From Candidatus Eiseniibacteriota bacterium (GTDB lineage: Bacteria > Eisenbacteria > RBG-16-71-46 > SZUA-252), in the NCBI GenBank assembly GCA_003235575.1, contig QJVW01000115.1, forward strand, positions 12,290-76,289: a stretch of 64,000 nucleotides of DNA. Direction: 5' to 3'. The notes under the pieces are model-generated. The model had not been told where the DNA came from and did no database searches. It was given only the letters and a program-made list of their open reading frames with translations. The position numbers and the translations under genes were made by a program. Shown here piece by piece: positions 17,281 to 51,314 of the stretch; within the stretch, counting starts at the first letter, position 1; each line of letters begins with the position of its first letter.

Positions 17281-17303
17281 CGCTGCGTCGCGGGAGGCTC
17301 GGC

Positions 17304-18752
<1,449 letters not shown>

Positions 18753-19604: not shown

Positions 19605-19608
19605 GTCG

Positions 19609-21129: not shown

Positions 21130-21132
21130 GCT

Positions 21133-22178: not shown

Positions 22179-22237
22179 GTCGTGCCTCGGGCACGGCGCG
22201 CGTCCGACCGCGGGGGCCGGCCGCTATCGCCGCCGCC

Positions 22238-22522
<285 letters not shown>

Positions 22523-23926
22523 TCAATGGGCATGACCGCTCTCCTCGTGTCCGTGCGCCTCGTGCGGCAGCATCATGTAGAGGTAGACGGTCGTCAGAAG
22601 CGCGAAGATCAACGCCTGAACGATGGCGGTCAGGGTCTGAAGCAACATGAACAGCGCCGTGATCCCCGCCATCGGCGGCACGGCCAGCGCGACGAGGCTC
22701 GCCTTCAAGCAAAGCGCCGCCACGCCGACGAAGACGACGATCAACGTGTCCTCGCCGAAGATGTTGCCGAAGAGTCGGCAGGAGAGGCTGACCGGCTTCA
22801 CCAGTTCCCCCAGGATGTGAACGGGGATCATGACCGGGAGCATGGCGAAGCCGACGATGTCGCGGGGCGAACCGGCGAGATGGTCGAGGTAGCCGAGCGG
22901 CCCCAGGTTGATCACGCCGGAGATCTGCACGTAGAGGAACGTCACCAAGGCGAGCGCGAGCGTCACGTCGAGGGTCGAGGTGGACGACTTCAGGCCCGGG
23001 ATGATGCCGATCAGGTTCATCATCAGGATGTAGAAGAAGATCGCCATGATGAATGGAAAATACTTGTGCAGGTGCCTGCCGAGCATGCCGCCGCAGACGT
23101 CCTCCATGCTCTCGATGATCCATTCGATCGCGTTCTGAAGTTGGCCGGGGACCGGCGAGGGCTTGCGCATGCCGATCCACGTCAGCCCCAGGAACAGAAA
23201 GCCCGCGAGCCAGGCGAAGACGAGATACTCGTTGTCGTGCATCCAGCGGACGACCGGCGCGTCGGGGAAGTAGTCGTTCGCGATCGTGACCCAGTTGGGA
23301 AGGTGCTCGCCGCCACCCTCGTGCTCGCCGCCGTCGTGTGCTCCCTCGGCATGCGTCGCGTCCGTGTGGGCGGCCTCGGCCTGCTCGCGTTCGGCGGCCG
23401 CCGGCTCCTCCGTGAGGGGGGCGCCGACTTCGGTGGCCGTCGCGGCATCCCCGGCGCCGTGGTCCTGCGCGAACGCGCGGACGGCGACGGGAAGCGCGAG
23501 GAGTCCCGCGATGAGAATGGTCGCGGCGAGCTTGGCCGAGCTCCGGGCGGGAGCTGCCGTTGTCGTTGCCCGCCGCGATGAATGCGCGTCACCGGCCGAG
23601 AAGGCCAGCATGATCGATTTGAGTACGAGAGCCAGGAGCGGCATCGAAAGCCCAGCGACGAGGGGCAGGAATTCCGCGCCGCGCCACTGCAGTACCGCGA
23701 ACGCGCCCCCGTAGACGATCACGAACTTCGCGGTCCCCACGAGGAACCCCTTCGCGCGCATCCAATCGCCCGTCGTCCGCGTCGGTGCGACCACGGCTCC
23801 TGTGAAGAGTTTCACAAGCCTGGTGAGAAAGAAGAAATTCGCGGCTGCCAAGATCTGCCCCGCGGCGAGCGAGAGCGCTGCGTTCGGATGGCGCGGCAAC
23901 AGAACCGCGACGAGCGCCGCGGCCAT
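22523..23926 (-). CDS. atpB: ATP synthase Fo subunit a, with an in-frame N-terminal AtpI-like module; an internal ATG at about 23611 starts a signal-peptide-like sequence
   Basis: The C-terminal roughly 250 aa are subunit a (LGRHLHKYFPFIMAIFFYILMMNLIGIIPG...CRLFGNIFGEDT...). The N-terminal roughly 105 aa resemble AtpI (4 TM helices). No stop codon separates the two modules. MLAFSAGDAHSSRRATTTAAPARSSAKLAATILIAGLLALPVAVRAFAQD looks like a subunit-a presequence. A His/Glu-rich linker (HTDATHAEGAHDGGEHEGGGEH) follows. Confidence 0.85.
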   Translation of the reverse strand: MAAALVAVLLPRHPNAALSLAAGQILAAANFFFLTRLVKLFTGAVVAPTRTTGDWMRAKGFLVGTAKFVIVYGGAFAVLQWRGAEFLPLVAGLSMPLLALVLKSIMLAFSAGDAHSSRRATTTAAPARSSAKLAATILIAGLLALPVAVRAFAQDHGAGDAATATEVGAPLTEEPAAAEREQAEAAHTDATHAEGAHDGGEHEGGGEHLPNWVTIANDYFPDAPVVRWMHDNEYLVFAWLAGFLFLGLTWIGMRKPSPVPGQLQNAIEWIIESMEDVCGGMLGRHLHKYFPFIMAIFFYILMMNLIGIIPGLKSSTSTLDVTLALALVTFLYVQISGVINLGPLGYLDHLAGSPRDIVGFAMLPVMIPVHILGELVKPVSLSCRLFGNIFGEDTLIVVFVGVAALCLKASLVALAVPPMAGITALFMLLQTLTAIVQALIFALLTTVYLYMMLPHEAHGHEESGHAH

Positions 23927-27211: not shown

Positions 27212-29623
27212 ATGGGCGTCATGGACGAAGGAATCCTTCGGGAGTTCCTTGCCGAGAGCCTGGAAGGGCTGGGGCAAGTGGAGCGCGATTTGGTTGCGCT
27301 CGAACGCGATCCCGGCGACGTCGCCAAGATCGGCGGCGTCTTTCGCGTGTTCCACACGATCAAGGGAACGTGCGGATTCTTCGGCTTCACGAAACTCGCC
27401 GCGGTAACGCACGCCGGCGAGAGCCTCCTGAGCCGGCTTCGTGGCGGCGAGCGGGCGCTCTCGCCGGAGATCGTGAACGCCCTCCTCGCTTTGGTCGACA
27501 CGGTCCGAGCCATTCTCGGCAGGATCGAATCGTCGAAGGAAGAAGGAGAGGGCAATTTCGCCCGCCTCATCCAAAGGCTCAACCGCCTGGAGGAGGAAGG
27601 CGCCACCGAAGCACCACCGGCCGCTACGGAACCGCCGCCCGCGCCGACGGCTGCGGGCGCCGCGACGGAGCCGCCCGCTCCCGAAGCGGACACGGCGGTC
27701 ATCCCGCGTGACGGCGGGCTCTTCGGACCCCTCATCGCGAGCGGAAGACTCGACCCCGAAGCGGTCGCGATCGCCGCGCAGCAGCAGCGGCTGGGCGACC
27801 CCCGGCGTCTGGGCGAGATCTTGGTGGACCATGGCGCGCTGCAACCCCAGGACATCCTGGACGCGCTCCTCGTGCGGAGCGAAATGGCGGCCAGCACCCT
27901 CGCGGAGTCGAGCATCCGGGTCGACGTTCACCTCCTGGATCTCCTGATGAACCTTGTGGGCGAACTGGTTCTCGCCCGCAACCAGCTGCTTCAAAACGTC
28001 GCCTCGCAGGATCACGCGGATCTACCCGGAACGGTGCAGCGGTTGAATCACATCACGACCGAGCTGCAGGAGCGGATCATGAAGACCCGCATGCAGCCGA
28101 TCGGCAACGTATGCAACAAGCTCCCGCGCTTGGTGCGCGACATCGCGTCCGCCTGCGGGAAGCAGGTCCGGCTGGAGCTGGAGGGGGTCGATACCGAACT
28201 GGACCGCACGATCATCGAGGCGATTCGCGATCCGTTGACGCACCTCATCCGCAACGCCATCGACCACGGCATCGAGACGACGGAAGCGCGCGTCGCGAAC
28301 GGCAAATCGCCCGAAGGTCTGCTCGTGGTTCGCGCCTTCCACGAAGGCGGGAAGGTGCACCTCGAGGTCGAGGACGACGGCGCGGGGCTGTCCCTCGAGT
28401 CCATTCGCGAACGGGCGCTCCGCCAGAACCTCATTCCGGCGGACCGCGCGGCGCGCATGACGGAGCGCGACTGGTACAACGTGATCTTCCTGCCCGGGTT
28501 CACGACCGCCGCGCGCGTGACGAACGTCTCCGGGCGCGGCGTGGGCATGGACGTGGTGAAGACGAACGTCGAGCGGATCGGCGGCGCGATCGACGTCGAC
28601 TCGAGGCCCGGACACGGCACCACGATGCGGATTCGGATTCCCCTCACGCTCGCCATCGTGCCCGCGCTCGTTATCTCGGTGGACGGCGAGCGCTACGCCA
28701 TTCCGCAGGTGAACCTGATCGAGTTGGTCCGCGTGGAGCGCGCCGAGGCGTCCACGCGCCTTGTGACCGCGTACGACGTGCCGGTGCTTCGCTACCGCGA
28801 GCGGCTCCTTCCCCTGCTCGACCTCCGAGCCATTCTCGGCACCGCGCCGACGCCCGCGCGCGCGGATGGCCCGGAGGGTGACGCGATCTCGATCGTCGTG
28901 CTCCACGCCGACGGTCTCACGGTCGGCCTCGTCGTGGACACCATCGAAGCGTCGCAGGAGATCGTGGTGAAGCCACTGGGCGAGCCGCTTCGCCAAATTC
29001 CCGTGTTCGCGGGCGCGACCATCCTCGGCGACGGCGCGGTCGCGCTCATCCTCGACGTCCCCGGGCTGGCCCGCCACGCCAGGATCTCCCGCTCGGACGG
29101 CGAGATCGAGGAGAGCGCGCCGGCGGAGAACGTGGACCGCGGCGCCATGGATCGCCAGACCCTGGTGGTGTGCACGGTCGGCCCGCGCTGGACCGTCGCG
29201 ATCCCGCAGACGCAGATCGCGCGGCTGGAGGAATTCCGCCGGGCGGACGTGGAGCGGTCGGGCGATCGCGCCATCATCCAGTACCGGGGCGGTCTTCTCC
29301 CGCTCGTGTCCCTTGGCGCGCTGCTCGATCTGGGCGGAACGCACGCGGCGACCGACATCGAGTGGATCGGCGACGCCGACCCCCTCCGCGTGGTGGTTCA
29401 CGAGCGCGAGGGACGCGCCGTCGGTCTGATCGTGGAGGCCGTCGTGGAGATCGTCGAAGAGCGCGTGGCGCCGGGAGGCGGCGACGCATCCACCGGGTTC
29501 GCCGGCGCGGTGGTGGTGCGCGGATCGGTCACGGAATTGATCGACCTCGAAGGGTTGCTGCGGCAGGCGGACGTTCATCGCCACAGCGCGCTGGCGGCGT
29601 CGGCGGAAGGGGGCGCCCGATGA
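27212..29623 (+). CDS. cheA: Chemotaxis histidine kinase CheA with two C-terminal CheW-like (P5) domains
   Basis: P1/Hpt FRVFHTIKGTCGFFGF; P3 dimerisation VDVHLLDLLMNLVGELVLARNQL; P4 N-box HLIRNAIDHGIE, G1 VEDDGAGL, G2 GRGVGMDVV, then GTTMRIRIPLTLAI; CheW domain 1 (ISIVVLHADGLTVGLVVD...) and CheW domain 2 (QTLVVCTVGPRWTVAIP...LIVEAVVEIVE). Confidence 0.95.
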   Translation: MGVMDEGILREFLAESLEGLGQVERDLVALERDPGDVAKIGGVFRVFHTIKGTCGFFGFTKLAAVTHAGESLLSRLRGGERALSPEIVNALLALVDTVRAILGRIESSKEEGEGNFARLIQRLNRLEEEGATEAPPAATEPPPAPTAAGAATEPPAPEADTAVIPRDGGLFGPLIASGRLDPEAVAIAAQQQRLGDPRRLGEILVDHGALQPQDILDALLVRSEMAASTLAESSIRVDVHLLDLLMNLVGELVLARNQLLQNVASQDHADLPGTVQRLNHITTELQERIMKTRMQPIGNVCNKLPRLVRDIASACGKQVRLELEGVDTELDRTIIEAIRDPLTHLIRNAIDHGIETTEARVANGKSPEGLLVVRAFHEGGKVHLEVEDDGAGLSLESIRERALRQNLIPADRAARMTERDWYNVIFLPGFTTAARVTNVSGRGVGMDVVKTNVERIGGAIDVDSRPGHGTTMRIRIPLTLAIVPALVISVDGERYAIPQVNLIELVRVERAEASTRLVTAYDVPVLRYRERLLPLLDLRAILGTAPTPARADGPEGDAISIVVLHADGLTVGLVVDTIEASQEIVVKPLGEPLRQIPVFAGATILGDGAVALILDVPGLARHARISRSDGEIEESAPAENVDRGAMDRQTLVVCTVGPRWTVAIPQTQIARLEEFRRADVERSGDRAIIQYRGGLLPLVSLGALLDLGGTHAATDIEWIGDADPLRVVVHEREGRAVGLIVEAVVEIVEERVAPGGGDASTGFAGAVVVRGSVTELIDLEGLLRQADVHRHSALAASAEGGAR

Positions 29624-34310: not shown

Positions 34311-34793
34311 ATGAGCACGGCGACCATCGATCTTCAGGAATGGCTGACCTGCCTCACCGATGTGGCGAACGATTTGGCCACGAACCATCTCCGGTTCGAG
34401 AGCAGCACGGAACAGGCCGACGCCACGATCGGGGCCGGCGTTCATCCGGCCGTCTACGTCGCCATTCTCGGCTCGCGAAACAGCATGCACCTGGGTCTCT
34501 CCGCCACCACGGCGGGATGTCATGCGCTGGCGCGCGCCTTTCTCGGCCTGCGCGGACGCGAGGATCTCACGGAGCGGGAAGTCATCGACGGGATGAGCGA
34601 GATCCTGAACATCCTGGCGGGCAAGGTGAAGTCCCGCATGTCGACGCGCGATGGATCCCTGAAGCTGGGGCTTCCGATGTTCGTGGCCGGCACCGTCGGG
34701 CACGGCGAGGGCGTCGAGAGGGCGGATCACGAGGTGTTCCTGGGACCGGTCCCGTGCCGGCTCCACGTCTTCCGGCAGAGCCGATCGGTGTAA
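34311..34793 (+). CDS. cheX: CheX/CheC-family chemotaxis phosphatase (CheY-P phosphatase)
   Basis: 160 aa; MSEILNILAGKVKSRM is the characteristic CheX motif and AVYVAILGS...MHLGLS fits the fold. The real ATG is internal to track ORF 34146. Confidence 0.7.
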   Translation: MSTATIDLQEWLTCLTDVANDLATNHLRFESSTEQADATIGAGVHPAVYVAILGSRNSMHLGLSATTAGCHALARAFLGLRGREDLTEREVIDGMSEILNILAGKVKSRMSTRDGSLKLGLPMFVAGTVGHGEGVERADHEVFLGPVPCRLHVFRQSRSV

Positions 34794-34807
34794 GGGGGCC
34801 TACGGTC

Positions 34808-36202
34808 ATGAATCGTCGATCACCAATGTTCACGCGACGCGCGATCCTCTTGATCCCCTTCCTCGCGGCGTTGGTGTTCGCGGTCCCCGCAGCCGACCGG
34901 GCGGACGCAAGCCGGGGGCGGAGCAACCTGGTCCTCGCGGGCGGCGTTCCCGGGGAAACCTTCGGATGCTCCGTGGCCTCCGCGGGCGACGTCAACGGCG
35001 ACGGGTATGTGGACGTCATCGTAGGCGCCTACCAGAGCGGAACCGCCGGGAGCCCAACCGGTCGCGCCTACATCTATTACGGCGGTCCCGGCGCCGACGA
35101 GCGGGCGGACGTGATCCTGACGGGAGAAGCCGCCGGGGACGCGTTCGGCGTCAGCGTGGCCGGCGCGGGCGACGTGAACCGGGACGGCTATGCCGACGTC
35201 ATCGTCGGCGCCTATGAGAACGACGGTCGCGGCGCGAACGCCGGCCGCGCGTACATCTATTTCGGCGGACCGAAGATGGATGCCAGCGCCGACGTCGTCC
35301 TGAACGGCGAAGCGGCGGGCGACGCATTCGGGTATTCCGTGGCGGGCGCGGGCGACGTGAACCGTGACGGCTATGCCGACGTTCTGGTGGGAGCGTACGA
35401 GAACAGCGCCGCCGGCCCCGGCGCCGGGCGCGCGTATCTGTACCACGGCGGGCCGAAGCCCGACGCGGTGGCCGACGTGATCCTCACCGGTGAAGCCGCG
35501 GGAGACCGTTTCGGCATCTCGGTGGCGGGCGCGGGCGACGTGAACGGCGATGGATTCGCCGATGTCGTCGTCGGCGCCTACCAGAACGACGCCGGGGGCC
35601 GGGATGCCGGGCGCGCCTACGTGTACTACGGCGCCCCGCGCCTGGGCATGCGACCGAACGCCGTCTTGACGGGATCCGCGGAGGGCGACGCCTTCGGCTT
35701 CGCCGTCGCGGGCGCCGGAGACGTCAACAAGGATGGGTTCGCGGACGTGATCGTCGGCGCCTACCACAACGACGCCGGCGGAAAGGACGCCGGAAGGGCG
35801 TTCGTCTACTTCGGGGGCGCGAACTTCTCGACGAAGGCTGACGCCGTTCTGACCGGCGAGGGCGCGGGCGATGCCTTCGGATACGCCGTCGGCGCCGCCG
35901 GCGACGTGAACGCCGACGGCTACGCCGACCTCTTGGTCGGCGCGTATGGAAACGACGCGGGCGGGTCCGCCGCGGGCCGGGCCTACGTGTTCTACGGGGG
36001 CACGACGCCCCACCTGACCTCCGACTTCAGCCTCACCGGTGGATCGACCCTCGACAACCTCGGCTTCGCGGTCGCGGGATCCGCCGACCTGAACGGCGAC
36101 GGCTACGCGGATATCGTCGTCGGGGCGCCCTACAGCGACTCGGGGCGCGCGCACGTCATCACGACGGTGGGCGCGAACTCCCGCCCCGTCGCCTCGCGCT
36201 AG
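34808..36202 (+). CDS. Secreted FG-GAP repeat (integrin-alpha-like beta-propeller) protein with seven or more repeats
   Basis: Signal peptide MNRRSPMFTRRAILLIPFLAALVFAVPAADRADA. Roughly 60-aa repeats of F/YG.SVA.AGDVNGDGYADVIVGAY...GRAYVYYGG, the FG-GAP/Ca-binding D-x-N-x-D-G signature. It is the last gene of the che operon. Confidence 0.9.
   Translation: MNRRSPMFTRRAILLIPFLAALVFAVPAADRADASRGRSNLVLAGGVPGETFGCSVASAGDVNGDGYVDVIVGAYQSGTAGSPTGRAYIYYGGPGADERADVILTGEAAGDAFGVSVAGAGDVNRDGYADVIVGAYENDGRGANAGRAYIYFGGPKMDASADVVLNGEAAGDAFGYSVAGAGDVNRDGYADVLVGAYENSAAGPGAGRAYLYHGGPKPDAVADVILTGEAAGDRFGISVAGAGDVNGDGFADVVVGAYQNDAGGRDAGRAYVYYGAPRLGMRPNAVLTGSAEGDAFGFAVAGAGDVNKDGFADVIVGAYHNDAGGKDAGRAFVYFGGANFSTKADAVLTGEGAGDAFGYAVGAAGDVNADGYADLLVGAYGNDAGGSAAGRAYVFYGGTTPHLTSDFSLTGGSTLDNLGFAVAGSADLNGDGYADIVVGAPYSDSGRAHVITTVGANSRPVASR
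34930..36190 (+). repeat. Roughly 180-bp periodic coding tandem repeats (FG-GAP units) within the preceding CDS
   Basis: The repeated nucleotide blocks ggcgcgggcgacgtgaac(c/g)g(c/t)gacggctatgccgacgt recur about every 180 bp. Confidence 0.7.
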
Positions 36203-36292: not shown

Positions 36293-37966
36293 CTAGGACG
36301 TGTGCCCGGCTTCCTCGGGGTCAGCCGCTGTGCGCGGGGGCGCCCAGGGCGCCGTGTTCTTCACGACGGGGATGGTGCCTTTGTTGAGGGCTTCCACGAA
36401 CACGGAGACGACTTCCGGCGCGAACTGGGTTCCCGCCTTCTCGGTCATCTGCGCCACCGCCTGTTCCATGGTGAGCCCGGCGCGATAGGGGCGATCCGTG
36501 GTCATGGCGTCGAATGCATCCGCGACGTTCACGATCTTCGCCGCGAGCGTCATCTCCTCGCCCGTCAACCCATCGGGGTATCCCTTTCCGTCCACCCGCT
36601 CATGGTGGTGACGGATCATGTCGATGCAGCGCTCCAGGAAGCGGACGCCGCGGACCATCTCGGCGCCGCGGACGGGATGCATCTTGACCATCCTCCACTC
36701 CTCGTCGGTCAGCGCACCCGGCTTGTGGAGGACCTTGTCCTCGGTGTGTACCTTTCCGATGTCATGCAGGAAGGCGCCGAATTGGATCCGCTGCACCTCC
36801 TCGGGGTCGAACTCCAGCGCCCGCGCGATGCCCACCGAATAGGCCGCGACGCGCTCGGTATGGCCGTGCGTGTACGGATCCTTCTCTTCGATCCGGGAGA
36901 CGAGCAGCCGGACGGTGGAGACGTAGGCCTCCTGGAGATCCTTGAATAGCCGCGCGTTCTCGATGGCGATGCCGGCCGATTCCGAGAGCGCACGAAGCAT
37001 TTCCAGGTCCGCCGCCTGGAACTCCTGGCCGCTGACCTTCTCCCCGATCGCCAGGACGGCGACCAGCCGGTTCTTCATGATGACCGGCGAGACCAGCGTC
37101 AATCCCGCCGCGTAGAGCTGCCCCACCTCGCGCTCGAACCCGCGGTGGTGCTCCACGGAGGCGAGTCGCACCGGGCGCGGGTCCTCGCTCCCGGGTGCGT
37201 GGAGGGAACGAATGAATTCTCCGTTGTAGTCGAGCACGATCGAGCGCGCCTGCTCCTCCTTCATGCCCTTGAAATTGGAGGCGTCCAGGCGCGTCGGGCT
37301 CTCCCGGTCGTCGGTGAGGAAAAGACAGGCGGCGTTGACGCGCAGCTGGCCCATCACGCTGAGGATCAGCGTTCCCAAGAGGCCTTCGAGATCAAGCGAC
37401 GCGTTGAGCTGGTGCGTCAAGCCCATCAGCGTCTCGAGGCTGTAGACCTGGAACCGAAGCTCCTTGTTCCGGACCAGCAGATCCTCGCGGTTTCGCTGCA
37501 CCTCGGATTCCAGCTCCTGGTTCTTTCCCGCCAGGGCGTCGTGCCGCTCCAGCCGCTCGAAGATGCGACGGACCTTGATGAGCAGTTCCTTGGGAGAGAA
37601 CGGCTTCGTCAGGTAGTCGTCCGCGCCGTGCATCAGCCCCTGCAGCCGCGAGTCGACCTCCGCGCTGGCGGACACCATCACGATCGGGATATGCGCGGTG
37701 TCGCGCGTACTCTTCATCGCGGCGCACACTTCGAATCCCGTCTTCTTCGGCAGACGCAGGTCCAGGATCACGAGATGCGGCGGGGTGCGGCGCACGATCT
37801 CCAGCGCATCCTCCCCCGACATCGCGGTCAGGACGCGGTATCCGTTCTGGGTCAGCGAGATCTGAAGCAGCTCGACAACGCGGCGATCGTCGTCCACGAC
37901 GAGGATGGTCCGCTTTCCTTTCGCAGGACCGGCTTCGGTGGCCGGCCGGAGGCTTTCGGTGCTCAC
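36293..37966 (-). CDS. Response regulator REC-(coiled coil)-GAF-HD-GYP (c-di-GMP phosphodiesterase-type output)
   Basis: REC: TILVVDDDRRVVELLQ...HLVILDLRLPKKTGFEVCAAMK...DDYLTKPF. GAF-like middle region. HD-GYP: FLHDIGKVH ... IRHHHERVDGKGYPDGLTGEEMTLAAKIVNVADAFDAMT. Confidence 0.9.
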   Translation of the reverse strand: MSTESLRPATEAGPAKGKRTILVVDDDRRVVELLQISLTQNGYRVLTAMSGEDALEIVRRTPPHLVILDLRLPKKTGFEVCAAMKSTRDTAHIPIVMVSASAEVDSRLQGLMHGADDYLTKPFSPKELLIKVRRIFERLERHDALAGKNQELESEVQRNREDLLVRNKELRFQVYSLETLMGLTHQLNASLDLEGLLGTLILSVMGQLRVNAACLFLTDDRESPTRLDASNFKGMKEEQARSIVLDYNGEFIRSLHAPGSEDPRPVRLASVEHHRGFEREVGQLYAAGLTLVSPVIMKNRLVAVLAIGEKVSGQEFQAADLEMLRALSESAGIAIENARLFKDLQEAYVSTVRLLVSRIEEKDPYTHGHTERVAAYSVGIARALEFDPEEVQRIQFGAFLHDIGKVHTEDKVLHKPGALTDEEWRMVKMHPVRGAEMVRGVRFLERCIDMIRHHHERVDGKGYPDGLTGEEMTLAAKIVNVADAFDAMTTDRPYRAGLTMEQAVAQMTEKAGTQFAPEVVSVFVEALNKGTIPVVKNTAPWAPPRTAADPEEAGHTS

Positions 37967-39666
37967 GAGTTGGTCTCCATGGAAACGGACGTATGGTTTC
38001 CGGTCGCGTCGCGCGCGCCGGCGTGCTGGTCGGAATCGCGGGTCTCGGCGGCGTGACCGCCGTCCGGAATGGTCGCGCCGGCGCCCAGGGGGTCGAGCAC
38101 GGCCCGATCCACGGCATGACCGGAGGCGCGCTCGGCGGCGGCGGCCGACGCCTGTTCGGCCCGGAGGCGGGAACGGCGCTCGGTCTTCTCCAGCACGCCC
38201 AGGAACACCTCCACCATCGAGGGATCGAACGGGGCGCCCCAGTTTTCCGAGATGACCTGTCGCGCCTTGTCGCGCGGCAGGGCCCGCCGATAGGGCCGTT
38301 CGCTGGTCATCGCGACGTACGCGTCGACCAGGGAGACGATGCGGGCGCCGAGGGGAATGTCCTGCCCCTTCAGGCCCGACGGATAGCCCTCGCCGCCCCA
38401 GCGCTCATGGTGATTGCGCACGACCTCCACGACCTCGGGCGAGAAGTCCATCTCCTCGAGGATCTGCGCACCACGCGCCGGATGTTGCTTGATCAGCGAC
38501 CACTCCTCCGCGGAGAGATGCGCCGGATTCTTGAGGATGAGATGACTGACCGCCAGCATGCCGATGTCGCGGAGTGCCGCCCCGTAGATCAACGCCTTCA
38601 CGTCGGCGCGGGGCACTTGGAGGAGCCGCGCCATGGCGGTGACCAGGCGCACCACGCGCTCGGTGGATCCCTTCGCATACACGTCGCGGCTTTCGATGAG
38701 GGACATCATGCCCCGCACCACGCCCAGATTTCGATCTTCCATCTGGCGATGGAACCGGGCATTGGCGATCGCGACGGCGGCCTGGTGCGCCAGAATCGTG
38801 AGCAGGTCCCGCTCGTCCTCCTGGAAACCGCGGTCTCCGCCGCGCGCGCCCAGGAAGAGCATGCCGATCAGTTCGCGACGCACCCACAAGGCGACGCCCC
38901 ATTCGAGTCCGGAGGCGCGGAGCGTGCGCGCGGCGCCCGCGGCGTCGGGGAGCGCCTCGGCTCCGACCATCGGCTCCGCGGCCGCCGTGGGCGCCAGCGC
39001 CAGGGCGTCCTCGAGGGTCGTGAACGTGTCGGCCTCCGCCATGGCCGCGATCGAAGCCGCCGACAGTTTCGTGTCGCGGAATTGGTCCCGCGCGAATCCA
39101 CGAACCTGGCGGGGGATGAGAACGCCCTCGCGGTCCGGGTCGTCGAGAAAGAGCGCCAGGCGCTCGACGCCGAATTGGCCCATGACCGAGAGCCCGAAGA
39201 GGTTGAGCACCTCATCCAGATCGTGGGCGAGGTTCAGCGCCTGCGTGATCTCGAAGAGATTTCTGAACTCGACGATCTTCAGGCGCAGCTTGGTTTGCAG
39301 CGCGGCGTGCTCCGCCACGCTCGGCCCGCCGGGCGGAACCGACGCTTCCTCCGTGGGGGAGTTCGAGGCGTAGATCTGCGCGCCCGATTCGAGGAGCGCC
39401 TCGCGGACGCCGCCGCGAATCCCCCGGACGATGATCCGCCGGGCCGCGCCTTCGTAGGCGCGCGCTTGCCGCTGGATCACGGACACGGCGAGCGCGGAGA
39501 CGTCGCTGACCTCGTCGAAGTCGAGGTGCACTTCCCGCGCGTCCCGGGCCAGACATTGAACCAGGAGTTGATCGAGCGCGCGTGCGCCCGCGGCGTCGAC
39601 GACCCCCCGGAGCGAGAACCGGAACTCGTCGCGCGGTTCGCCGCGGACGAGGTGAAGGCCCTTCAA
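37963..39666 (-). CDS. STAS (anti-sigma-antagonist-like)-GAF-HD-GYP protein; probable TTG start overlapping the upstream stop (TTGA)
   Basis: STAS: LKGLHLVRGEPRDEFRFSLRGVVDAAGARALDQLLVQCLA...EVHLDFDEVSDVSALAVSVI...RIIVRGIRGGVREALLESG. GAF region. HD-GYP: AALRDIGMLAV ... VRNHHERWGGEGYPSGLKGQDIPLGARIVSLVDAYVAMT. The track ORF extends to 40500 through roughly 270 aa of Arg/Gly-rich sequence that overlaps the upstream gene and is implausible. Confidence 0.75.
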   Translation of the reverse strand: MKGLHLVRGEPRDEFRFSLRGVVDAAGARALDQLLVQCLARDAREVHLDFDEVSDVSALAVSVIQRQARAYEGAARRIIVRGIRGGVREALLESGAQIYASNSPTEEASVPPGGPSVAEHAALQTKLRLKIVEFRNLFEITQALNLAHDLDEVLNLFGLSVMGQFGVERLALFLDDPDREGVLIPRQVRGFARDQFRDTKLSAASIAAMAEADTFTTLEDALALAPTAAAEPMVGAEALPDAAGAARTLRASGLEWGVALWVRRELIGMLFLGARGGDRGFQEDERDLLTILAHQAAVAIANARFHRQMEDRNLGVVRGMMSLIESRDVYAKGSTERVVRLVTAMARLLQVPRADVKALIYGAALRDIGMLAVSHLILKNPAHLSAEEWSLIKQHPARGAQILEEMDFSPEVVEVVRNHHERWGGEGYPSGLKGQDIPLGARIVSLVDAYVAMTSERPYRRALPRDKARQVISENWGAPFDPSMVEVFLGVLEKTERRSRLRAEQASAAAAERASGHAVDRAVLDPLGAGATIPDGGHAAETRDSDQHAGARDATGNHTSVSMETNS

Positions 39667-41369
39667 GCGTCCGCTCCTGCCGCCGGCGCGGCGGCGCCGA
39701 TGGCGTCCGGCGTTCCCAGGAGGCGGAGACGGCGCATGACGGCCGCCGGGTGGAGCACCAGCGTCACTTGGTTGTCGACCCCCACGATACCGCCCAGAAC
39801 CTCCTCGACCGGGTAGAGCCGCGGTGGAAGGGGGGAGAGCCGCGCATTCTCGCGCCAGACGATACGGTCGAAGCCCACCGCGCCGGTCTCCTTGCCGGAG
39901 CGAAGGATCGCCAGCGGGCCGTCGGCCGGTTGCGGCGGCGAATCGTCCGCCTGCCCCGGACCGAACAGCGACGCGAGGGGCACGACCCTGGCGCCACCTC
40001 CCCCTCCCGACCAGACCAACTCCTCGCGGGAAGCGTGGATTCGTTCGATGGCGCTCCACGGGAGCGCGATCCGCTGTCCCGAGACTTCGACGATGAGAAA
40101 ACCCCGCAGCGAACGCGCCATGGGAAACTGCATGTGCACGACCGAGGTCCCGGGCTTCCCGCCCTGATGCGTGACGAAGCCGCCTAGCTCTTCGAGCGCG
40201 GATTCCAGCCGCGCGATGGATTCCGAATCGAAGGCGACGCGGCCCTCGATCGCCAACCTCGCCTCCAAGCCCTCGCGCGCGGCGGTGACGCGAAGCTGGC
40301 GCGACGTCTCCCCTTCCGGAGATTCGGCCGTTTCCAGAACGCGATAGATCGACGGCAGGAGCATCGATCCGATTTCGGGCTCGAAGCCGACGCCGCCCGT
40401 GTGCACCGTCAGGACGCTTCGCCGCTCCGCCGTGTCGCGGCGGGCCGCGGCGGCGTAGATCTCGTCCACGAATCGGTCCAGCGGATCCAGGAATTCCCAC
40501 AGCAGGTGTTCATCCAAGTCGCGCGCCCGACGTTCCAGCGAGTACTGAACGCCCAGCAGTTGATGGATGTCGTGGGACAGCGAACGCATCCCGGTCGCGA
40601 CCTCCTCCAGGGTCTGATGCACCTCGATGGCCCGGGCCGTGACGTTTTGGCGGCGCGCGGGCGACGGTTCCGCCGGACCGCGACCGCTCGACGCAGTCTC
40701 GCCGGGAGCCAGACGGTCGGGATCGATGGCCTTCATGAACTGGTCCCACTCCGCCAGCACCCGCTGGACGGATCGGAGCATCGCGCCCAACCCCTCGCTG
40801 ATCGAGCCCATGCGGTCGTTCTGGCTGACGAGCGAGGACTTGATCTCAAAGGTCAGCGCGAGCAGGTTCTCCCGCGGCGCCATGTCCGGCGTCGCCTCGT
40901 CGATCACCCCGCGCGACGCGTTCAGCGCCTGCGCCTTCGCGCGGCTCAGCGAGGAACGCAGGTTGTCGATGGCGTCCCCGACGGAGGAAGCGTGGGCGAG
41001 CAGGGCGGCGAAGCCTTCGGTTCGCAATTGCTGCGCCAGGCGATCCTGCGCCTCGAGCGCCACGCGGCAATGCGCCACCAGCGTCTCGCGCTCCTCGGGG
41101 CGCACGTTGCCGAGCCGCACGAGGCTCTCCTGCAGCTCGCGCGCCAGGGACGCCACGCTCCCGATATCGAGCCAATCCGCGCTTCGCTCCACGAGCCGCA
41201 CGGAGAGTTCGACGATGGGGCCGAGTTCGTGCGATCCGAGATCGGGCTCCTCCGTGTCGAGGAAGGTGCGCACGATGTCGATCTCCTCGCGCATGAGCGC
41301 GCTGAACGTCGCGCTCAACCGAGACATGATTTGCTCGTTGCTGAGGTGTTCCGAAGCGGCGGTGCGCAT
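39663..41369 (-). CDS. CheA-like scaffold protein with degenerate Hpt and ATPase domains (no phospho-acceptor His, no N/G1/G2 boxes) and an intact C-terminal CheW-like domain
   Basis: The P1-like region ELSVRLVERSADWLDIGSVASLAREL aligns with FRVFHTIKGTCGFFGF of the canonical cheA in this window but has E/R where the His should be. The P4-like EFLDPLDRFVDEIYAAAARR lacks the N-box Asn/His, and SVLTVHTGGVGF replaces the DxGxG motif. ...GTSVVHMQFPMARSLRGFLIVEV then the CheW domain (IALPWSAIERI...GPLAILRSGKETGAVGFDRIV). Confidence 0.75.
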   Translation of the reverse strand: MRTAASEHLSNEQIMSRLSATFSALMREEIDIVRTFLDTEEPDLGSHELGPIVELSVRLVERSADWLDIGSVASLARELQESLVRLGNVRPEERETLVAHCRVALEAQDRLAQQLRTEGFAALLAHASSVGDAIDNLRSSLSRAKAQALNASRGVIDEATPDMAPRENLLALTFEIKSSLVSQNDRMGSISEGLGAMLRSVQRVLAEWDQFMKAIDPDRLAPGETASSGRGPAEPSPARRQNVTARAIEVHQTLEEVATGMRSLSHDIHQLLGVQYSLERRARDLDEHLLWEFLDPLDRFVDEIYAAAARRDTAERRSVLTVHTGGVGFEPEIGSMLLPSIYRVLETAESPEGETSRQLRVTAAREGLEARLAIEGRVAFDSESIARLESALEELGGFVTHQGGKPGTSVVHMQFPMARSLRGFLIVEVSGQRIALPWSAIERIHASREELVWSGGGGGARVVPLASLFGPGQADDSPPQPADGPLAILRSGKETGAVGFDRIVWRENARLSPLPPRLYPVEEVLGGIVGVDNQVTLVLHPAAVMRRLRLLGTPDAIGAAAPAAGADA

Positions 41370-41392: not shown

Positions 41393-42922
41393 CTACCTGG
41401 GTCCGCCCGGCTGAATTCCCTCGAGCCAGTCGGGGATCTTTGGTTCGATCGGCGCCGTCGACGGGGTCTCGCCCTCCGGCTCGGCCGCGGCCGCGGGCGC
41501 GTCGTTCGCTTCCGGCACCGCGTCGTGAAGCGACGCGGGATCGACGGGGCGCGGCTCCACGTGATCTTTGGGCCCCGCCGGCGTGACGGGTTCGAACGGA
41601 TCGTCGAACGAAGCGTCCGCCGAGGGCGCCTCCGCCGGGGGCTCGAAGCGGCTCACCTCGTCCTCTACGGGAACGCCGTCCGCCGCGGCGCCGTCGGCCG
41701 GGCCTTCCGTGATCGCGGCGTCGTGGTTCTCGTCGATTTCGATCGCACTCATCCGTGACGGTTCGCTCTCCTCGACCCCGACGGGTTCGGCCACCGTCGG
41801 CGGCATCGCCGCTCCCTCTTCGAATTCTTCGATCGACGCACCGAGCCGCTCGCGCAACCCGCGGGTCCGCGCCACCAGCGATTCCAAGGACTCCAGCGCC
41901 GCCGGCGATACCGCCGGCGCGCCGACATCCGCATCGGTGCCGATCGACGCCACCGCGGCCTTCGCGTCCTCGCTGCTCGATTGAATGGAGGCGATGGTGT
42001 CGCCCACCTTGAATTCGATCTCGCTCGAGAGCCGGGAGATCGTGTCGGTGGCCTCGCGCGCGTACTCCGCGAGGCGACGCGTTTCCTCGGCGATCGACGC
42101 GAACGCCTCGCTGCCCGAGCGGGTGGCCTCGAGGGCCGCGTTCAGCGCCAGAAGCGTCGCGCGGTTGGTGACTTTCTCGGCCACGCCGGTCAGTTCGTTC
42201 GCGCGCATCAGCCCCGCGGCCAGATCCTCGATGCCGTCGGCGGCCGTGCGCACCAGCGCGTCGACCATCGCGGCGGGCGACCCGTTGCCGCCGTTCCCCG
42301 CCGGCGTGGAGCCCGACTGAAGCGTCCGCAGGACGGCGGCGAGATCGGTCTCGAGCGAGGCGAGCCCCTCGTCATAGGTCCGAAGCGTACCGACCGCCTT
42401 GCGCCCGACCTCGCGATCGTACGGCGCGGTGGGAGGAACGGCTTCGTCGGAGCCGATCAACTCATCGGCCGCGTACGCGGGACGCGGCTCATGAACCTCC
42501 GGCTCCGTTGGGGAGTCGTCCTGATCCCGGCGCACCTTCTCGAGCTCGAGGAGCGCCATCGCCGAGGCGCGTTGCGCGGCGGCGCTGGACGCGACCTCCC
42601 GGTAGAGCGACTGCCACGGTTCCGTGCGAAACGAGGCCGGCGGCTCGTTCGGCGCTTGGTCGGAAAGCGCGATGTCGAGTAGCGCGGACACCTTCGCGGC
42701 GGGCGCGCCCGCGGCCTGAGCGGCCAGCGCCGTGCAAATGCCGGCGCTGGCGAGGCCGACGACGACCCCGACGGCGACGCCAAGCGTTCCGCCGAGGCCG
42801 AACGCGGCTGCGGCAGCCGCGACGGCGCCGAGGAACGAGACGACGAACACGCCAGCGGACGGCTTGGCGGCGCCCTGCCTATCCGGCGTGTGCTTCCCCG
42901 ATTCGCGAGCGGCATCCGTCAT
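41393..42922 (-). CDS. Short membrane-anchored MCP-like protein (divergent MCP signalling tip, no HAMP, acidic/Pro-rich disordered C-terminal tail of about 200 aa)
   Basis: N-terminal hydrophobic segments VFVVSFLGAVAAAAAAFGLGGTLGVAVGVVVGLASAGICTALAA. MCP tip homolog ELTGVAEKVTNRATLLALNAALEATRSGSEAFASIAEETRRLAEYAREATDTISRLSSEI (compare [33 protein letters not shown] in the canonical MCP). The tail is rich in E/D/P/A. Confidence 0.7.
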   Translation of the reverse strand: MTDAARESGKHTPDRQGAAKPSAGVFVVSFLGAVAAAAAAFGLGGTLGVAVGVVVGLASAGICTALAAQAAGAPAAKVSALLDIALSDQAPNEPPASFRTEPWQSLYREVASSAAAQRASAMALLELEKVRRDQDDSPTEPEVHEPRPAYAADELIGSDEAVPPTAPYDREVGRKAVGTLRTYDEGLASLETDLAAVLRTLQSGSTPAGNGGNGSPAAMVDALVRTAADGIEDLAAGLMRANELTGVAEKVTNRATLLALNAALEATRSGSEAFASIAEETRRLAEYAREATDTISRLSSEIEFKVGDTIASIQSSSEDAKAAVASIGTDADVGAPAVSPAALESLESLVARTRGLRERLGASIEEFEEGAAMPPTVAEPVGVEESEPSRMSAIEIDENHDAAITEGPADGAAADGVPVEDEVSRFEPPAEAPSADASFDDPFEPVTPAGPKDHVEPRPVDPASLHDAVPEANDAPAAAAEPEGETPSTAPIEPKIPDWLEGIQPGGPR

Positions 42923-42938: not shown

Positions 42939-43505
42939 TCATCGACTACCGAGCCCGCTCAGGCGAAAGGCGGCGGGCGGTGCGACCGAATCCATCAACG
43001 ACCAGTAATCCAGATGCCGTGCGTGGCGGCCTTGAACGTCGTACACGGCGAGGACGGCGGGCTCGCCGTCGGCGGGCGCCGCCGTGGCGGAGGCCTCCAA
43101 CTCGGAGAGGTCGGCCACGTCGCCGGCCGCGACGGCCGGAGGAACAGGCTCGGGGTCCGGAACGGCGCACTTCAGTTCCACCACGTCGCGCCCCGGAATC
43201 AGCCGCGGCATGCCACGAACCAGGAGCGCGATCCGATCGGTGCCCCGCTCGAGGACCACGGCATAGGCGGGCGGGCTCGGCGATGCGTCGCCGCCGAGCG
43301 CGGATTCGACGTCGATCGCCGGCACGACGGAGCCGCGAAACGCGACCACGCCGGCCATCGGAGGAACGCGTCCCGGAAGCCGCGCCAGGTGCTCGGCCTC
43401 GAGCAGTCCCGCCACTTCGTCCACGGGGGCGGCGAGAAGTTCGTCGCCGGCCTCGAAGACGACGAGGCCGCGCACGCCGAGCACCGTCCGCCTTGGTTGA
43501 TCCAT
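42939..43505 (-). CDS. CheW-like coupling protein with an acidic C-terminal extension (start at the internal MDQPRR)
   Basis: MDQPRRTVLGVRGLVVFEAGDELLAAPVDEVAGLLEAEHLARLPGRVPPMAGVVAFRGSVVPAIDVESALG...AYAVVLERGTDRIALLVRGMPRLIP is a CheW fold. The track ORF starts 21 codons upstream. Confidence 0.75.
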   Translation of the reverse strand: MDQPRRTVLGVRGLVVFEAGDELLAAPVDEVAGLLEAEHLARLPGRVPPMAGVVAFRGSVVPAIDVESALGGDASPSPPAYAVVLERGTDRIALLVRGMPRLIPGRDVVELKCAVPDPEPVPPAVAAGDVADLSELEASATAAPADGEPAVLAVYDVQGRHARHLDYWSLMDSVAPPAAFRLSGLGSR

Positions 43506-43965
43506 GGAGCCACTCCGTCCTTTGAAGGCGAGCTGAAACCTGTACGAATGAAGAAAGGCAAGTAACATGCCACGAACGACTTCCGCCGAATCACGCTAAC
43601 CCTTTGCCGTGTAGCGGCTTCGTACTCATCCAATCGGCAGGTTCCCGGCGTTGTGGAGGGCTTTTGGTCAGCGGCCGCCGGGCGTGTTGCAATCCTGGCC
43701 GTATTCCGCAATCCCCCACCCATCCGGCGGTAAAACACACCCACCCAGAGGGCTAAATCCGACCAGAGGCTGGGCTGATCGAGCCCTTCGGCGCCGCCGC
43801 GGCGGCGAATCCACTTGCGACCATGTTGTTGTAAATAAATCGCTTACACGTCTGGAGCGACGTTTCCGGCGGCTCGGCACGCGGCGTGCAGTGGCAGGGA
43901 GTCGAAGGCCGCGGAGATCGGAAGCCGCGGCGAGGAGTGGACGGAAAAGAGAGGGGGGCAGGGAC

Positions 43966-45466: not shown

Positions 45467-47993
<2,527 letters not shown>

Positions 47994-48047
47994 TTTTTTT
48001 CCGCCCGTTTCCCGCCCCCGGTCGGGGCCGCGCCGCGTGGTACGCTC

Positions 48048-49145
48048 GTGGCAATCATGAACGTTCGCCCCAACCCCCGTGACGCCACCTTGGAGCGCCT
48101 GGCCGCCCGCGCCATCGCCGAGGGCGATCTCCTGCCCGACGGCGCCGCTCCTGTCGTGGTCGCCGTTTCGGGCGGCGCCGATTCCATGGCGCTGCTCCAT
48201 TTCCTGCTTTCGTGGGCGCGCGACCAGGGGGCCCCGCGGGCCGTCGTCGCGGCGCACGTGAACCACCGCCTGCGGGGTGGCGCCTCCGACGAGGATGCGT
48301 CGTTCGTGGCGGCGGAGGCATCGGCGTGGGGCGCCGAGGTGGAAATCGTGGACGCGGAGATCCCCGCGCCGGCCCGCGGGCGCGCCGCGATGGGCGCCGC
48401 CATCGAGGCCGAGGCGCGCCGGGCGCGCTATGCGGCGCTGGCCGCCGTCGCCGCCCGGCACGGCGCGGACCGGATCGTGGCCGCGCATACGGCGGACGAC
48501 CAGGCGGAGACGGTGCTGCTCCGGCTGATCCGGGGCGCGGGGCTCCGCGGCCTGGCCGGCATGGCGCCGATGGCGCGGGTCCAGGGCGTGCGCGTGGTTC
48601 GACCCTTCCTTGCGCTGACGCGACGCGACGTCCAGGAATACGCCGCCCGCCATCGAATTCCCTTCCGCGAGGACGCCACGAACGCCGGCACGGCGGCCGC
48701 GCGCAACTTCGTCCGGCATGAAATCCTTCCCCGCATCGAGGCGCGGCTCAATCCAGCCGCGCGTTCGGCGTTGGTCCGGGCGGCGGCCGCGATCCGTGAA
48801 ACGGACGCCTATCTGGAGCGCCGGGCGGCGCGCGCGTATGGGCGCGTCGTGGCGGGCCGGGAGCCGGGGAAGATCATTCTTGATGCCCCCCGCCTGCTCC
48901 ACTACCCTAAGCCCTTGCGGACTTATGTGTTCCGCTGCGCGGTGCGCGAGCTGACGGGGAACCTCCGCGATGTCTCTGCGGTACACCTCCGAGCGCTTCA
49001 TCAGCTGGCCGAATCCCGACGCGGCCGCGAGGCCGACCTCCCGGGAGCATTGCAAGCACGACGCGAACGAAACAGGCTGATTCTGAGCCGCGCGCGCCCG
49101 CGGAAGCACGAACCGGCGGCGCTTCGCGCGCCATCCAAGGCTTGA
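48048..49145 (+). CDS. tilS: tRNA(Ile)-lysidine synthetase
   Basis: The PP-loop VVVAVSGGADSMALLHFLL (SGGxDS) and the TilS N-type ATP pyrophosphatase domain. Confidence 0.9.
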   Translation: MAIMNVRPNPRDATLERLAARAIAEGDLLPDGAAPVVVAVSGGADSMALLHFLLSWARDQGAPRAVVAAHVNHRLRGGASDEDASFVAAEASAWGAEVEIVDAEIPAPARGRAAMGAAIEAEARRARYAALAAVAARHGADRIVAAHTADDQAETVLLRLIRGAGLRGLAGMAPMARVQGVRVVRPFLALTRRDVQEYAARHRIPFREDATNAGTAAARNFVRHEILPRIEARLNPAARSALVRAAAAIRETDAYLERRAARAYGRVVAGREPGKIILDAPRLLHYPKPLRTYVFRCAVRELTGNLRDVSAVHLRALHQLAESRRGREADLPGALQARRERNRLILSRARPRKHEPAALRAPSKA

Positions 49146-49187
49146 GAGCCCGCGGCTTTTGCCGATAACGAAAGGACCAGAAGGCCC

Positions 49188-51314
49188 GTGAACGAAGTCC
49201 CCAACCGAGAGACCGACGTGACCCAACGCACCGATCGTGGCGCACGACTGGAAGCCCGCAAGGCATCGGGCGGCGATCGCCCTTCGCGCCGCCGGCCCGC
49301 GCCCCCTCCGCCGAAGAACCAGCCGCCGCGAAAGCCGTCGCCGTTCGGCCCGGCGCGTCCGCTTCGGACCGCGCTGCTCTGGCTGATCCTCGTTCTCGCG
49401 GTGCTGGTGTTCGTCCAGGTCTACGGCGAGATCAAGTCGAAGGTCCACGAGATCCCCTACAGCGAGTTCCTCACGCAGGTGGACCAGGCGAACCTCAAAT
49501 CGGTCACGATCGTGGGCCGCGAGGTGGTCGGCGAGCTGAAGCAGAGCGCGCTGACGCACGTGGAGGGAAGGCCGGTTTCCTTCGTCTTCTTCAAGGTCTA
49601 CCTCCCCGCCGAAGACAAGGACCTCGGGCGCGCCATCCTCGCCAAGGATGCGGCCACGATGGTGAACTCGAAGCCCGAGGGGATGAACTGGTGGGGGATC
49701 TTGCTCTCGTACCTTCCCTTCATCGCGCTCCTGGTTCTCTGGATGGTGATGATCCGGCAGCTGCAGTCGGGCGGAGCGAACGCGATGAAGTTCGGCAAGA
49801 GCCGCCCCAAGATCGCGCTGGAATCGGCGCCGAAGGTGACGTTCAAGGACGTGGCGGGCGCCGACGAAGCGAAGTTCGAGCTCGAGGAGATCATCGAGTT
49901 CCTGCGCGAGCCGAAGAAGTTCCAGCGTCTGGGCGGACGCCTTCCGAAGGGCGTGCTGCTCCTGGGTCCCCCGGGCACGGGCAAGACCCTGCTGGCGAAG
50001 GCCGTGGCGGGCGAGGCGGGCGTGCCCTTCTACTCGCTGTCGGGCTCCGACTTCGTCGAGATGTTCGTCGGGGTCGGCGCCTCCCGCGTGCGCGACCTGT
50101 TCGACCAGGGAAAGCGGAACGCCCCCTGCATCATCTTCATCGATGAAATCGATGCCGTGGGTCGCCATCGCGGAGCGGGGCTCGGCGGCGGACACGACGA
50201 ACGCGAGCAGACCCTGAACCAGCTGCTGGTGGAAATGGACGGCTTCGAGACGAACGACGGCGTGATCCTGATCGCCGCCACCAACCGTCCCGACGTGCTC
50301 GATCCCGCGCTGCTGCGCCCGGGCCGGTTCGACCGGCAGGTCGTCGTGGATATTCCGGACGTCCGCGGACGCGAGGGGATCCTCCGCGTTCATTCGCGAA
50401 ACATCCCGCTGTCGGACGACGTCGAGCTGTCGGTCCTCGCCAAGGGCACCCCGGGCATGGTGGGCGCCGATCTGGCGAATCTGGTCAACGAAGCGGCCCT
50501 GCTGGCGGCGCGTCGCAACCACAAGAAGGTGTTCCTGGCGGACCTCGAGGACGCGAAGGACAAGGTCATGATGGGCGGCGAGCGCCGGAGCCTGGTGATC
50601 ACCGACGCGGAAAAGAAGGCGACGTCCTACCACGAGGCGGGCCACGCCCTGGTCGCCTATCTGCAGCCGGGGAGCGACAAGGTGCACAAGGTCACCATCA
50701 TCCCGCGCGGGCGCGCGCTTGGGCTCACGTCGTATCTGCCGCAGGAGGAACTGCATTCCTTCTCGCGCGACTACTGGCAGCGCGTTCTGGTGCACATGAT
50801 GGGCGGGCGCGCCGCCGAAGAGATCGTGCTGAACCAGGTCACCACGGGCGCCCAGGACGACATCCGGCGCGCCACGGTGATCGCGCGCCGGATGGTCTGC
50901 GAGTGGGGCATGAGCGAGAAGCTTGGCCCGCTCAATTTCGGCGGCAAGGATGAACTGGTGTTCCTCGGCCGTGAAATCTCACACAGCCGCGACTACAGCG
51001 AGAACACCGCGATCCTGATCGACGAGGAGGTTCGCGCGCTGGTGGAAGGCGCCGATAACCGCGCCAAGAAACTCCTGAGCGATAACGTCGACAAGCTTCA
51101 CGCGATCGCCCTCGCCCTCCTGGAGCGCGAGGTGCTCGACGGCGAGGAAATCGAGAAGCTGCTGCGCGGCGAAACGCTCGAGCCGCTCTCGCCGCGCGGG
51201 CACGGCGGCGACAACGATCCGAAGGCCGCCGCGGAGGCGACGCCGGCCTCGGACTCCGAGCGCGTGGCGCCGTCGCGCGTGACCCCGGCCACGGAGAGCC
51301 CCGGCATCGCCTGA
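49188..51314 (+). CDS. ftsH: ATP-dependent zinc metalloprotease FtsH
   Basis: TM segments; AAA Walker [19 protein letters not shown], Walker [11 protein letters not shown], the SRH; Zn-binding HEAGHAL. The N-terminal roughly 60 aa are basic and Pro-rich, so the true start may be internal. Confidence 0.95.

Follow-up and report, generated by a model that had tools for sequence, protein, structure and literature searches.

Chemosensory arrays are understood as machines for controlling a kinase, and in that kinase, CheA, the P3-P4 linker passes receptor control to the P4 domain. CheA-lineage architectures without HATPase_c are known (CheA.XI/XII, Vass et al.) and have been read as split kinases with a phosphorylatable Hpt domain (bioRxiv 10.1101/2022.05.07.491035). 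In P. aeruginosa, the ChpA-derived scaffold FimL has Hpt-like domains with Gln where His would stand, and it controls cyclic AMP (cAMP) synthesis; it matches only the N-terminal 563 residues of ChpA (PMC3019171). Here, we analyzed a 64,000-nucleotide stretch (hereafter the window; contig QJVW01000115.1) of a Candidatus Eiseniibacteriota bacterium, in which an earlier note had proposed a CheA paralog without kinase activity. This pseudo-CheA of 568 residues is encoded at 39663..41369 on the minus strand. We give a probability of roughly 0.55 to the reading that it is a non-catalytic scaffold in a kinase-less receptor-CheW-pseudo-CheA complex controlling a pair of phosphodiesterases for cyclic diguanosine monophosphate (c-di-GMP). 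In the literature we found nothing specific on a kinase-dead CheA, on chemosensing in Eisenbacteria or on a STAS/HD-GYP chemosensory module. The host organisms are known from metagenomes only, and the whole analysis was done in silico; we know of no cultured representatives of the phylum.

The pseudo-CheA is a homolog of CheA. In a global hhalign alignment, the profile of its residues 230-568 matched a profile of 65 diverse canonical CheAs with a probability of 99.9% (E=4.4e-31), and the family profile searched against the PDB matched P4-P5 of T. maritima CheA (E=5e-5). Against the single canonical CheA of the window, hhalign aligned only the end of P4 and P5; the diverse CheA profile was needed. 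An AlphaFold2 model computed from 40 members of the family (mean predicted local distance difference test, pLDDT, of 80) starts with a bundle of four helices at the N terminus, continues with three long helices and an alpha/beta domain of 120 residues, and closes with a double beta-barrel. Foldseek matched this model to P3-P4-P5 of the E. coli and T. maritima CheAs at E~5e-16, and DivL was also among the fold neighbors.

On the minus strand, the architecture begins with a P1-like four-helix bundle (residues 11-118, 41016..41339) and a long helical region with a putative P3-like dimerization hairpin (residues 119-293, 40491..41015). In that second segment starts an invariant linker, LERRARDLDEHLLWEFLDPLDR (residues 278-299), the counterpart of the canonical RMxPI P3-P4 linker, and there follow a lid-less P4 remnant (residues 294-416, 40122..40490) and a P5/CheW-like double beta-barrel (residues 417-552, 39714..40121). 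The first P3 helix could not be aligned to CheA by profile. Within the helical region, residues 119-186 (40812-41015, minus strand) contain strongly conserved motifs (GF..L..H, SRGVID, ENLLALTFEIK..L.HQN.R) that have no CheA counterpart; REC or STAS might dock here, or the stretch could be an accessory region as in CheA3. Residues 121-170 were modeled at low confidence (pLDDT 41-64).

At the C terminus the P5/CheW-like domain is present, as the earlier note had said, but it is divergent: the Pfam CheW match (residues 457-547) scores 17.5 bits, below the cut-off of 23.5. The Pfam scan gave no Hpt, H-kinase_dim or HATPase_c match and the NCBIfam scan no match at all, leaving about 375 residues of the family without a Pfam or NCBIfam model. 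By contrast, the canonical CheA of the window matches all four Pfam domains and the NCBIfam CheA model.

Evidence for the P1 assignment is weaker than for the other domains. A separate model of residues 1-128 reached a pLDDT of 89.6, and with it Foldseek found no match better than E=0.1, ranking designed bundles beside Hpt domains; in a profile alignment the bundle ran gapless against 50 canonical P1 domains over 103 columns (E=7e-4, probability 26%). In helix B (residues 52-68), there is no His in any of 36 species; instead, an invariant R58-L-V-x-R-S-A-x-W-L is found, with E61 in 32 of the 36. Among the same species no His is universally conserved anywhere in the protein: H126 is Q in four of them, and H182 is S in the window copy. 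We also considered H126 as a HisKA-like phospho-His, given the resemblance of F120-x5-H126 to the H-box F-x5-H; this was rejected on account of the Q in four species and of downstream residues unlike HE[LIM]RTP.

The nucleotide pocket is likewise gone. In the global profile alignment, the canonical P3-P4 linker and first P4 helix (..RMvPi..l..rlpR.VRD) pair with LLWEFLDPLDRFVDEIY, strand beta1 and the next loop (gK.V.L.i.G.etElDr) with RSVLTVHTGGVGFEPE, and the N-box helix (DPL.HLvRNAvD) with PSIYRVLETAES (residues 339-350), in which R343 takes the place of the His and T347 that of the Asn. The beta hairpin that normally ends in G1 (GtI.l.A..eG..v.I.V) corresponds to QLRVTAAREGLEARLAIE; the canonical DDGrGI ... 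F ... GRGVGm then falls opposite gaps, and the alignment picks up again where GlDVVr..ve.lgG meets IARLESALEELGG. The G1-lid-F-G2 segment, about 60 residues, is deleted, so that the P4 remnant is a Bergerat-fold core without the N-box Asn/His, G1, ATP lid, F and G2, alignable to CheA over only 123 of 189 residues. When EIG...LL is matched by eye, the N-box register shifts by four residues; since residues 331-350 contain no Asn or His at any position, the loss of the N box is independent of register.

The register is corroborated by a 932-residue CheA-like protein from our exhaustive search, P0180, which carries a canonical TRMQPLD...GKQVLLRVDAGELRIEPE. It aligns with the window CheA at E=2e-13 with one 48-residue gap at CheA residues 396-443, the lid region, and with the pseudo-CheA in the same register as the global profile alignment. 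The predicted topology of the P4 remnant (helix 297-309, strand 317-323, helix 331-347, hairpin 356-376, helix 382-395 and strands 398-403 and 409-416) fits a Bergerat fold minus its lid. An alternative register, with RFVDEIYAAAARR as the N box and TGGVGF as G1, is contradicted by the global profile alignment, by P0180 and by the secondary-structure topology; its support was a BLASTP match to the window CheA at E=0.009 and a local hhalign match at E=0.21 (probability 0.3%).

The pseudo-CheA thus has neither a phospho-acceptor nor a nucleotide pocket, and it is almost certainly unable to autophosphorylate and non-catalytic as a kinase. The earlier note had called the Hpt and ATPase motifs degenerate and the G2 box missing, and all three statements stand, the ATPase loss being more thorough than it had described; the strings it quoted are all present, in the pseudo-CheA open reading frame (ORF) and in the canonical CheA (27212-29623), and the alignments to CheA support its interpretation of a kinase-less paralog. 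What does not survive are the residue correspondences drawn by eye. RFVDEIY is in fact the first P4 helix past the P3-P4 linker, and TGGVGFEPE is the loop ahead of the N-box helix, whose equivalent is PSIYRVLETAES. The alignments show no conserved P1 His and no N, G1 or G2 box, while the misalignment that the note had allowed for did turn out to affect its register.

With every catalytic motif gone, the gene could be a non-functional, decaying pseudogene or a relic of a duplicated cheA. The ORF, the only one at 39663-41369, starts with ATG at 41369, preceded by GAAGGGAG and 23 bp past the stop of the upstream gene, and ends with TGA at 39663; its GC content by codon position (0.73/0.49/0.85) is like that of the other genes of the window (68% GC). 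A word-seeded search of 5.8 billion proteins recovered 170 homologs, down to about 50% identity and full length save for a few truncated entries on short contigs, annotated as "hypothetical protein" from Candidatus Eisenbacteria metagenome-assembled genomes and carrying no precomputed Pfam domains. An exhaustive hidden Markov model (HMM) search of 1.84 billion representatives at 50% identity gave three full-length clusters of the family and otherwise fragments only; below these clusters the scores fell sharply to E~1e-13, where ordinary CheAs align at profile positions ~376-547 only (the end of P4 and P5). In a GTDB survey of one genome per species, 36 species carried the gene as a full-length ORF, with identity down to 42%. 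Nearly all bear the Eisenbacteria label, and binning errors probably explain the few exceptions, so the family is restricted to Candidatus Eisenbacteria.

Conservation across these 36 species is greatest in the linker, where 18 of 60 positions are invariant, and in the P4 remnant, where 31 of 120 are; these are the most constrained parts at 26-30%, as against 12-16% in the P1-like and P5 regions. Signature motifs are RLVERSAEWL, ENLLALTFEIK, LERRARDLDEHLLWEFLDPLDR, TGGVGFEPEIG, AAREGLEAR, QFPMARSLRxFLIVE, ALPWSA and FDRIVWRENARL. The gene is under strong purifying selection and is not decaying. The intact ORF in 36 species and about 170 database proteins, the long invariant motifs, the gene-like codon-position GC and the kept operon context all speak against a relic, and because of these conservation data that explanation, to which we give next to no weight, is effectively refuted.

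That a former catalytic domain is so invariant points to a specific site for a partner or ligand rather than to structural upkeep alone. One could suppose that the remodeled linker and P4 remnant act as a sensor of small molecules (e.g., c-di-GMP or pGpG/GMP) that feeds the messenger level back to the phosphodiesterases or the receptor complex. The sole basis for this is motif resemblance; RxxD-like strings are common in Arg-rich, high-GC proteomes, and no known c-di-GMP-binding domain model in Pfam or NCBIfam matches the protein, so that we consider a sensor improbable. Conservation of the P3-P4 linker hints that the readout is still a receptor-driven shift of the P4 remnant.

The gene belongs to a compact operon on the minus strand. 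Upstream lie a dedicated CheW (42939..43568; Pfam CheW, 55.2 bits), whose position is kept in loci L003-L039, and a dedicated short methyl-accepting chemotaxis protein (MCP; 41393..42922; Pfam MCPsignal, 43.8 bits, residues 231-327), which ends 23 bp before the pseudo-CheA. The MCP has an N-terminal hydrophobic hairpin of two segments, no periplasmic domain and a short recognizable signaling part with the receptor tip LLALNAALEATRSG...; its tail of ~150 residues is acidic, rich in Pro, Glu and Ala, and ends in ...IPDWLEGIQPGGPR. Downstream are STAS-GAF-HD-GYP (37963..39666), whose TTG start shares TTGA with the pseudo-CheA stop in a 4-nt overlap, and REC-GAF-HD-GYP (36293..37966), which overlaps STAS-GAF-HD-GYP by another 4 nt. 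Both overlaps recur in three genomes among which the pseudo-CheA is only 53-60% identical.

The operon survey combined gene calling on public contigs with tblastn searches of 40 loci. The MCP precedes the pseudo-CheA in 39 of 42 loci bearing it, i.e., wherever the contig extends there, and in all loci with enough flank CheW and MCP lie directly upstream; the order CheW, MCP, pseudo-CheA, STAS-GAF-HD-GYP, REC-GAF-HD-GYP is found in every locus that is long enough. In the window and some relatives, a complete che operon (CheA, CheW, MCP, CheY, CheB, CheR and CheX) runs convergent with the module just past an FG-GAP gene; in other genomes the ATP synthase operon follows the module directly. The module is an old, vertically inherited unit, and adjacency to a che operon is lineage-specific. 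Its position is conserved between an IMPDH/FtsH region and the ATP synthase operon, as seen by comparing window regions ~17300-23900 (minus strand) and 45467-51314 with L003 and L004; ~17300-23900 is identified as ATP synthase by synteny with L003 alone. Only in this lineage and some others do the che operon and the FG-GAP repeat gene (34340-36202) stand between the module and ATP synthase.

This setting bears on whether the pseudo-CheA might act without a complex of its own, as a decoy or attenuator that takes the place of CheA dimers in canonical arrays, lowering kinase density or tethering accessory proteins, in the manner of E. coli CheA-short. Every genome with the module encodes a CheW and a divergent MCP belonging to it, and in L003 the module lies far from the che operon, both of which argue for a separate complex. 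The P5 domain and the receptor tip are both divergent, consistent with co-evolution inside the module. We therefore regard a decoy as unlikely.

The two downstream genes appear to form an unequal pair. REC-GAF-HD-GYP, at 69-79% identity, is better conserved than any other gene of the operon: its receiver pocket is intact (DDD, ILDLRLP, TKPF), and the metal ligands and GYP motif of an HD-GYP domain (HGH, LHDIGK, HHHERVDGKGYP, DAFDA) are present in 27 of 27 sequences. The window copy of STAS-GAF-HD-GYP has degenerate catalytic residues, with KGS for HGH and LRDIGM for LHDIGK; most of the 32 family members likewise have KGS/T/N and LRDIGM, HHERWGGEGYP being kept. From its sequence, STAS-GAF-HD-GYP is a probable pseudo-phosphodiesterase, and since the loss of metal ligands is family-wide, the operon would hold two pseudo-enzymes. 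These substitutions point to a dead/live HD-GYP pair within one operon.

GHKL partners such as SpoIIAB bind STAS proteins through their ATP lid. The STAS position matching Ser58 of SpoIIAA is A in the window and T, S, L or V elsewhere. A phosphorylation-based partner switch of the SpoIIAB/SpoIIAA type between the P4 remnant and STAS was rejected, as the module has neither an ATP-binding GHKL kinase (the remnant has no nucleotide site) nor a STAS domain with a conserved Ser; plain binding between the two may still occur.

The intact REC domain raises the question of whether the pseudo-CheA is a phosphatase or phospho-sink arm in the manner of R. sphaeroides CheA3, speeding dephosphorylation of REC-GAF-HD-GYP once the canonical CheA has phosphorylated it. 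Work by Porter and colleagues from 2008 is said to have shown that CheA3 is a P1-P5 protein whose central region dephosphorylates CheY6-P. In line with this, the CheA3 P1 domain (3kyi, TM score 0.61) is among the structural neighbors of the N-terminal bundle, and the long conserved helices between P1 and P4, with the invariant polar residues E167 N168 ... E175 K177 ... Q183 N184 R186, have no counterpart in canonical CheA. The pseudo-CheA, unlike CheA3, has no phosphorylatable His in P1; Pfam and NCBIfam revealed no phosphatase motif of the CheZ, CheX/CheC or CheA3 type in it, and region 121-165 was modeled at low confidence. On balance we think a phosphatase role quite unlikely.

We favor instead the scaffold complex controlling the phosphodiesterase pair. 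The pseudo-CheA descends from CheA, keeping a P1-like bundle, a putative P3-like hairpin, the P3-P4 linker, a P4 core and P5, and would be co-translated with a private, membrane-anchored MCP and a private CheW. It would dimerize via the P3-like hairpin and bind the operon CheW and MCP through P5, as CheA does, giving a core complex at the membrane that is built like a chemosensory core unit but has no kinase activity. The output of this complex may be recruitment, or allosteric or other protein-protein control, of the two downstream HD-GYP proteins, with STAS-GAF-HD-GYP acting as an adaptor that docks on the pseudo-CheA and pairs with the active REC-GAF-HD-GYP phosphodiesterase. The REC domain could receive its phosphoryl group from the genuine CheA, the obvious candidate, encoded convergently a few kb away in the window genome. 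In this way the pseudo-CheA would position the phosphodiesterase at or near an array and tie receptor state, CheA~P or both to the hydrolysis of c-di-GMP.

Several points weigh against this proposal. Complexes of the pseudo-CheA with MCP, CheW and STAS are read only from gene order and fold. The divergence of P5, with its sub-threshold CheW match, could mean that incorporation into arrays is altered. Docking of STAS on the P4 remnant is only a guess, because the ATP lid is absent and the Ser58-equivalent is not conserved. A passive scaffold would not need LERRARDLDEHLLWEFLDPLDR, TGGVGFEPEIG and AAREGLEAR to be as invariant as they are, and this degree of constraint may reflect an unknown ligand or catalytic site. 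Finally, the che operon does not adjoin the module in several genomes (among them L003, L012, L023 and L025), and synteny therefore does not require a link to the canonical CheA.

That canonical CheA, encoded at 27212..29623 on the plus strand, is a candidate phosphodonor for REC-GAF-HD-GYP. It has a P1-P3-P4-P5 architecture (Pfam Hpt, H-kinase_dim, HATPase_c and CheW; NCBIfam CheA), with a second CheW-like stretch past P5 (residues ~661-790, 29192-29581, plus strand; Pfam CheW in two stretches); dual-CheW architectures of this kind are classed as CheA.V/VI (bioRxiv 10.1101/2022.05.07.491035). Its P1-P3 linker, GLFGPLIASGRLDPEAVAIAAQQQRLGDPRRLGEILVDHGALQPQDILDALLVRS (residues ~170-222, 27719-27877, plus strand), resembles a tandem c-di-GMP-binding motif of the MshEN/GSPII type. 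It matched NCBIfam NF053729 at E=2.9e-5 (23.8 bits, below the cut-off of 38) and, by phmmer, the GSPII repeats in PilF of T. thermophilus (E=1.9e-4). Motif II agrees with the relaxed pattern of 24 residues, and motif I is one residue short of it (PMC5013675, where MshEN-CheA fusions are also mentioned). If the motif is true, c-di-GMP, the substrate of the neighboring HD-GYP module, could act on the real kinase.

A more elaborate form of the scaffold proposal, which we hold as tentative and rather doubtful, dispenses with kinase and phosphotransfer in the array altogether: conformational changes of the receptor would pass via the linker and P4 remnant straight to a STAS-tethered dead/live HD-GYP heterodimer, the output being allosteric control over c-di-GMP hydrolysis, and c-di-GMP would act back on the genuine CheA by way of the MshEN-like motif of that kinase.

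CheA-lineage proteins without ATP binding have so far been explained as halves of split kinases; the pseudo-CheA is without the phospho-site as well as the nucleotide pocket. Should it form an array, it would be a natural experiment on the receptor-CheW-CheA architecture without phosphorylation, and it would provide an extra path by which chemoreceptors reach c-di-GMP turnover. It further points to lid-less CheA-like proteins elsewhere. The exhaustive search returned further CheA-like proteins without N, G1 and G2 boxes, namely P0176, P0180, P0244 and P0256, of which the first three end in a CheW-like domain and P0256 reads Hpt-...-CheW-REC with no HATPase_c. Scaffolds of this lid-less, CheA-like kind thus also occur outside Eisenbacteria, and these four look like members of a wider, apparently undescribed class. 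P0176 (L041 7840-10536) and P0244 (L042 2724-5999) combine a Pfam FimL_2nd match with a CheW-like domain at the C terminus, follow CheW and MCP (or unannotated 771-residue) genes, and share with the pseudo-CheA only the lid-less P4 and P5; judging by their neighbors (a His_kinase/LytTR pair; FimW, PapD), their contigs may be gammaproteobacterial.

Among described systems, FimL resembles the pseudo-CheA as a degenerate, Hpt-like scaffold descended from a CheA homolog, with a residue other than His at the acceptor position and a link to a second messenger, but it belongs to another phylum and its messenger is cAMP, not c-di-GMP (HD-GYP). Pfam FimL_2nd gave no match in the pseudo-CheA at E<=1, and the extent of the FimL match to ChpA suggests that FimL has neither a P4 remnant nor P5. 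Split CheAs (R. sphaeroides CheA3, CheA.XI/XII) likewise combine P1 and P5, lack a functional ATP-binding domain and reside in arrays; they differ in having a phosphorylatable His that a partner CheA trans-phosphorylates, whereas the pseudo-CheA has no conserved phosphorylatable P1 His and keeps a lid-less P4 core. DivL is similar in being GHKL-derived and acting via protein contacts, but it is of the HisKA/DHp class and keeps its ATP-binding domain. CheA-short (CheA_S) of E. coli, which arises by alternative translation and has its kinase domain intact, lacks the phospho-site His48, sits in the array and recruits CheZ; the analogy is functional only, as the pseudo-CheA is a separate, kinase-less gene. 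With the canonical CheAs of T. maritima and E. coli, the pseudo-CheA shares domain order and folds (P1-like bundle, a putative dimerization hairpin, P3-P4 linker, Bergerat-fold core and P5 double barrel), and an MCP and a CheW are encoded alongside. It differs from them in lacking the phospho-His, the N-box Asn/His, G1, lid, F and G2, which makes it about 60 residues shorter, and a recognizable P2; its helices between P1 and P4 are longer, and its output genes encode HD-GYP proteins rather than CheY.

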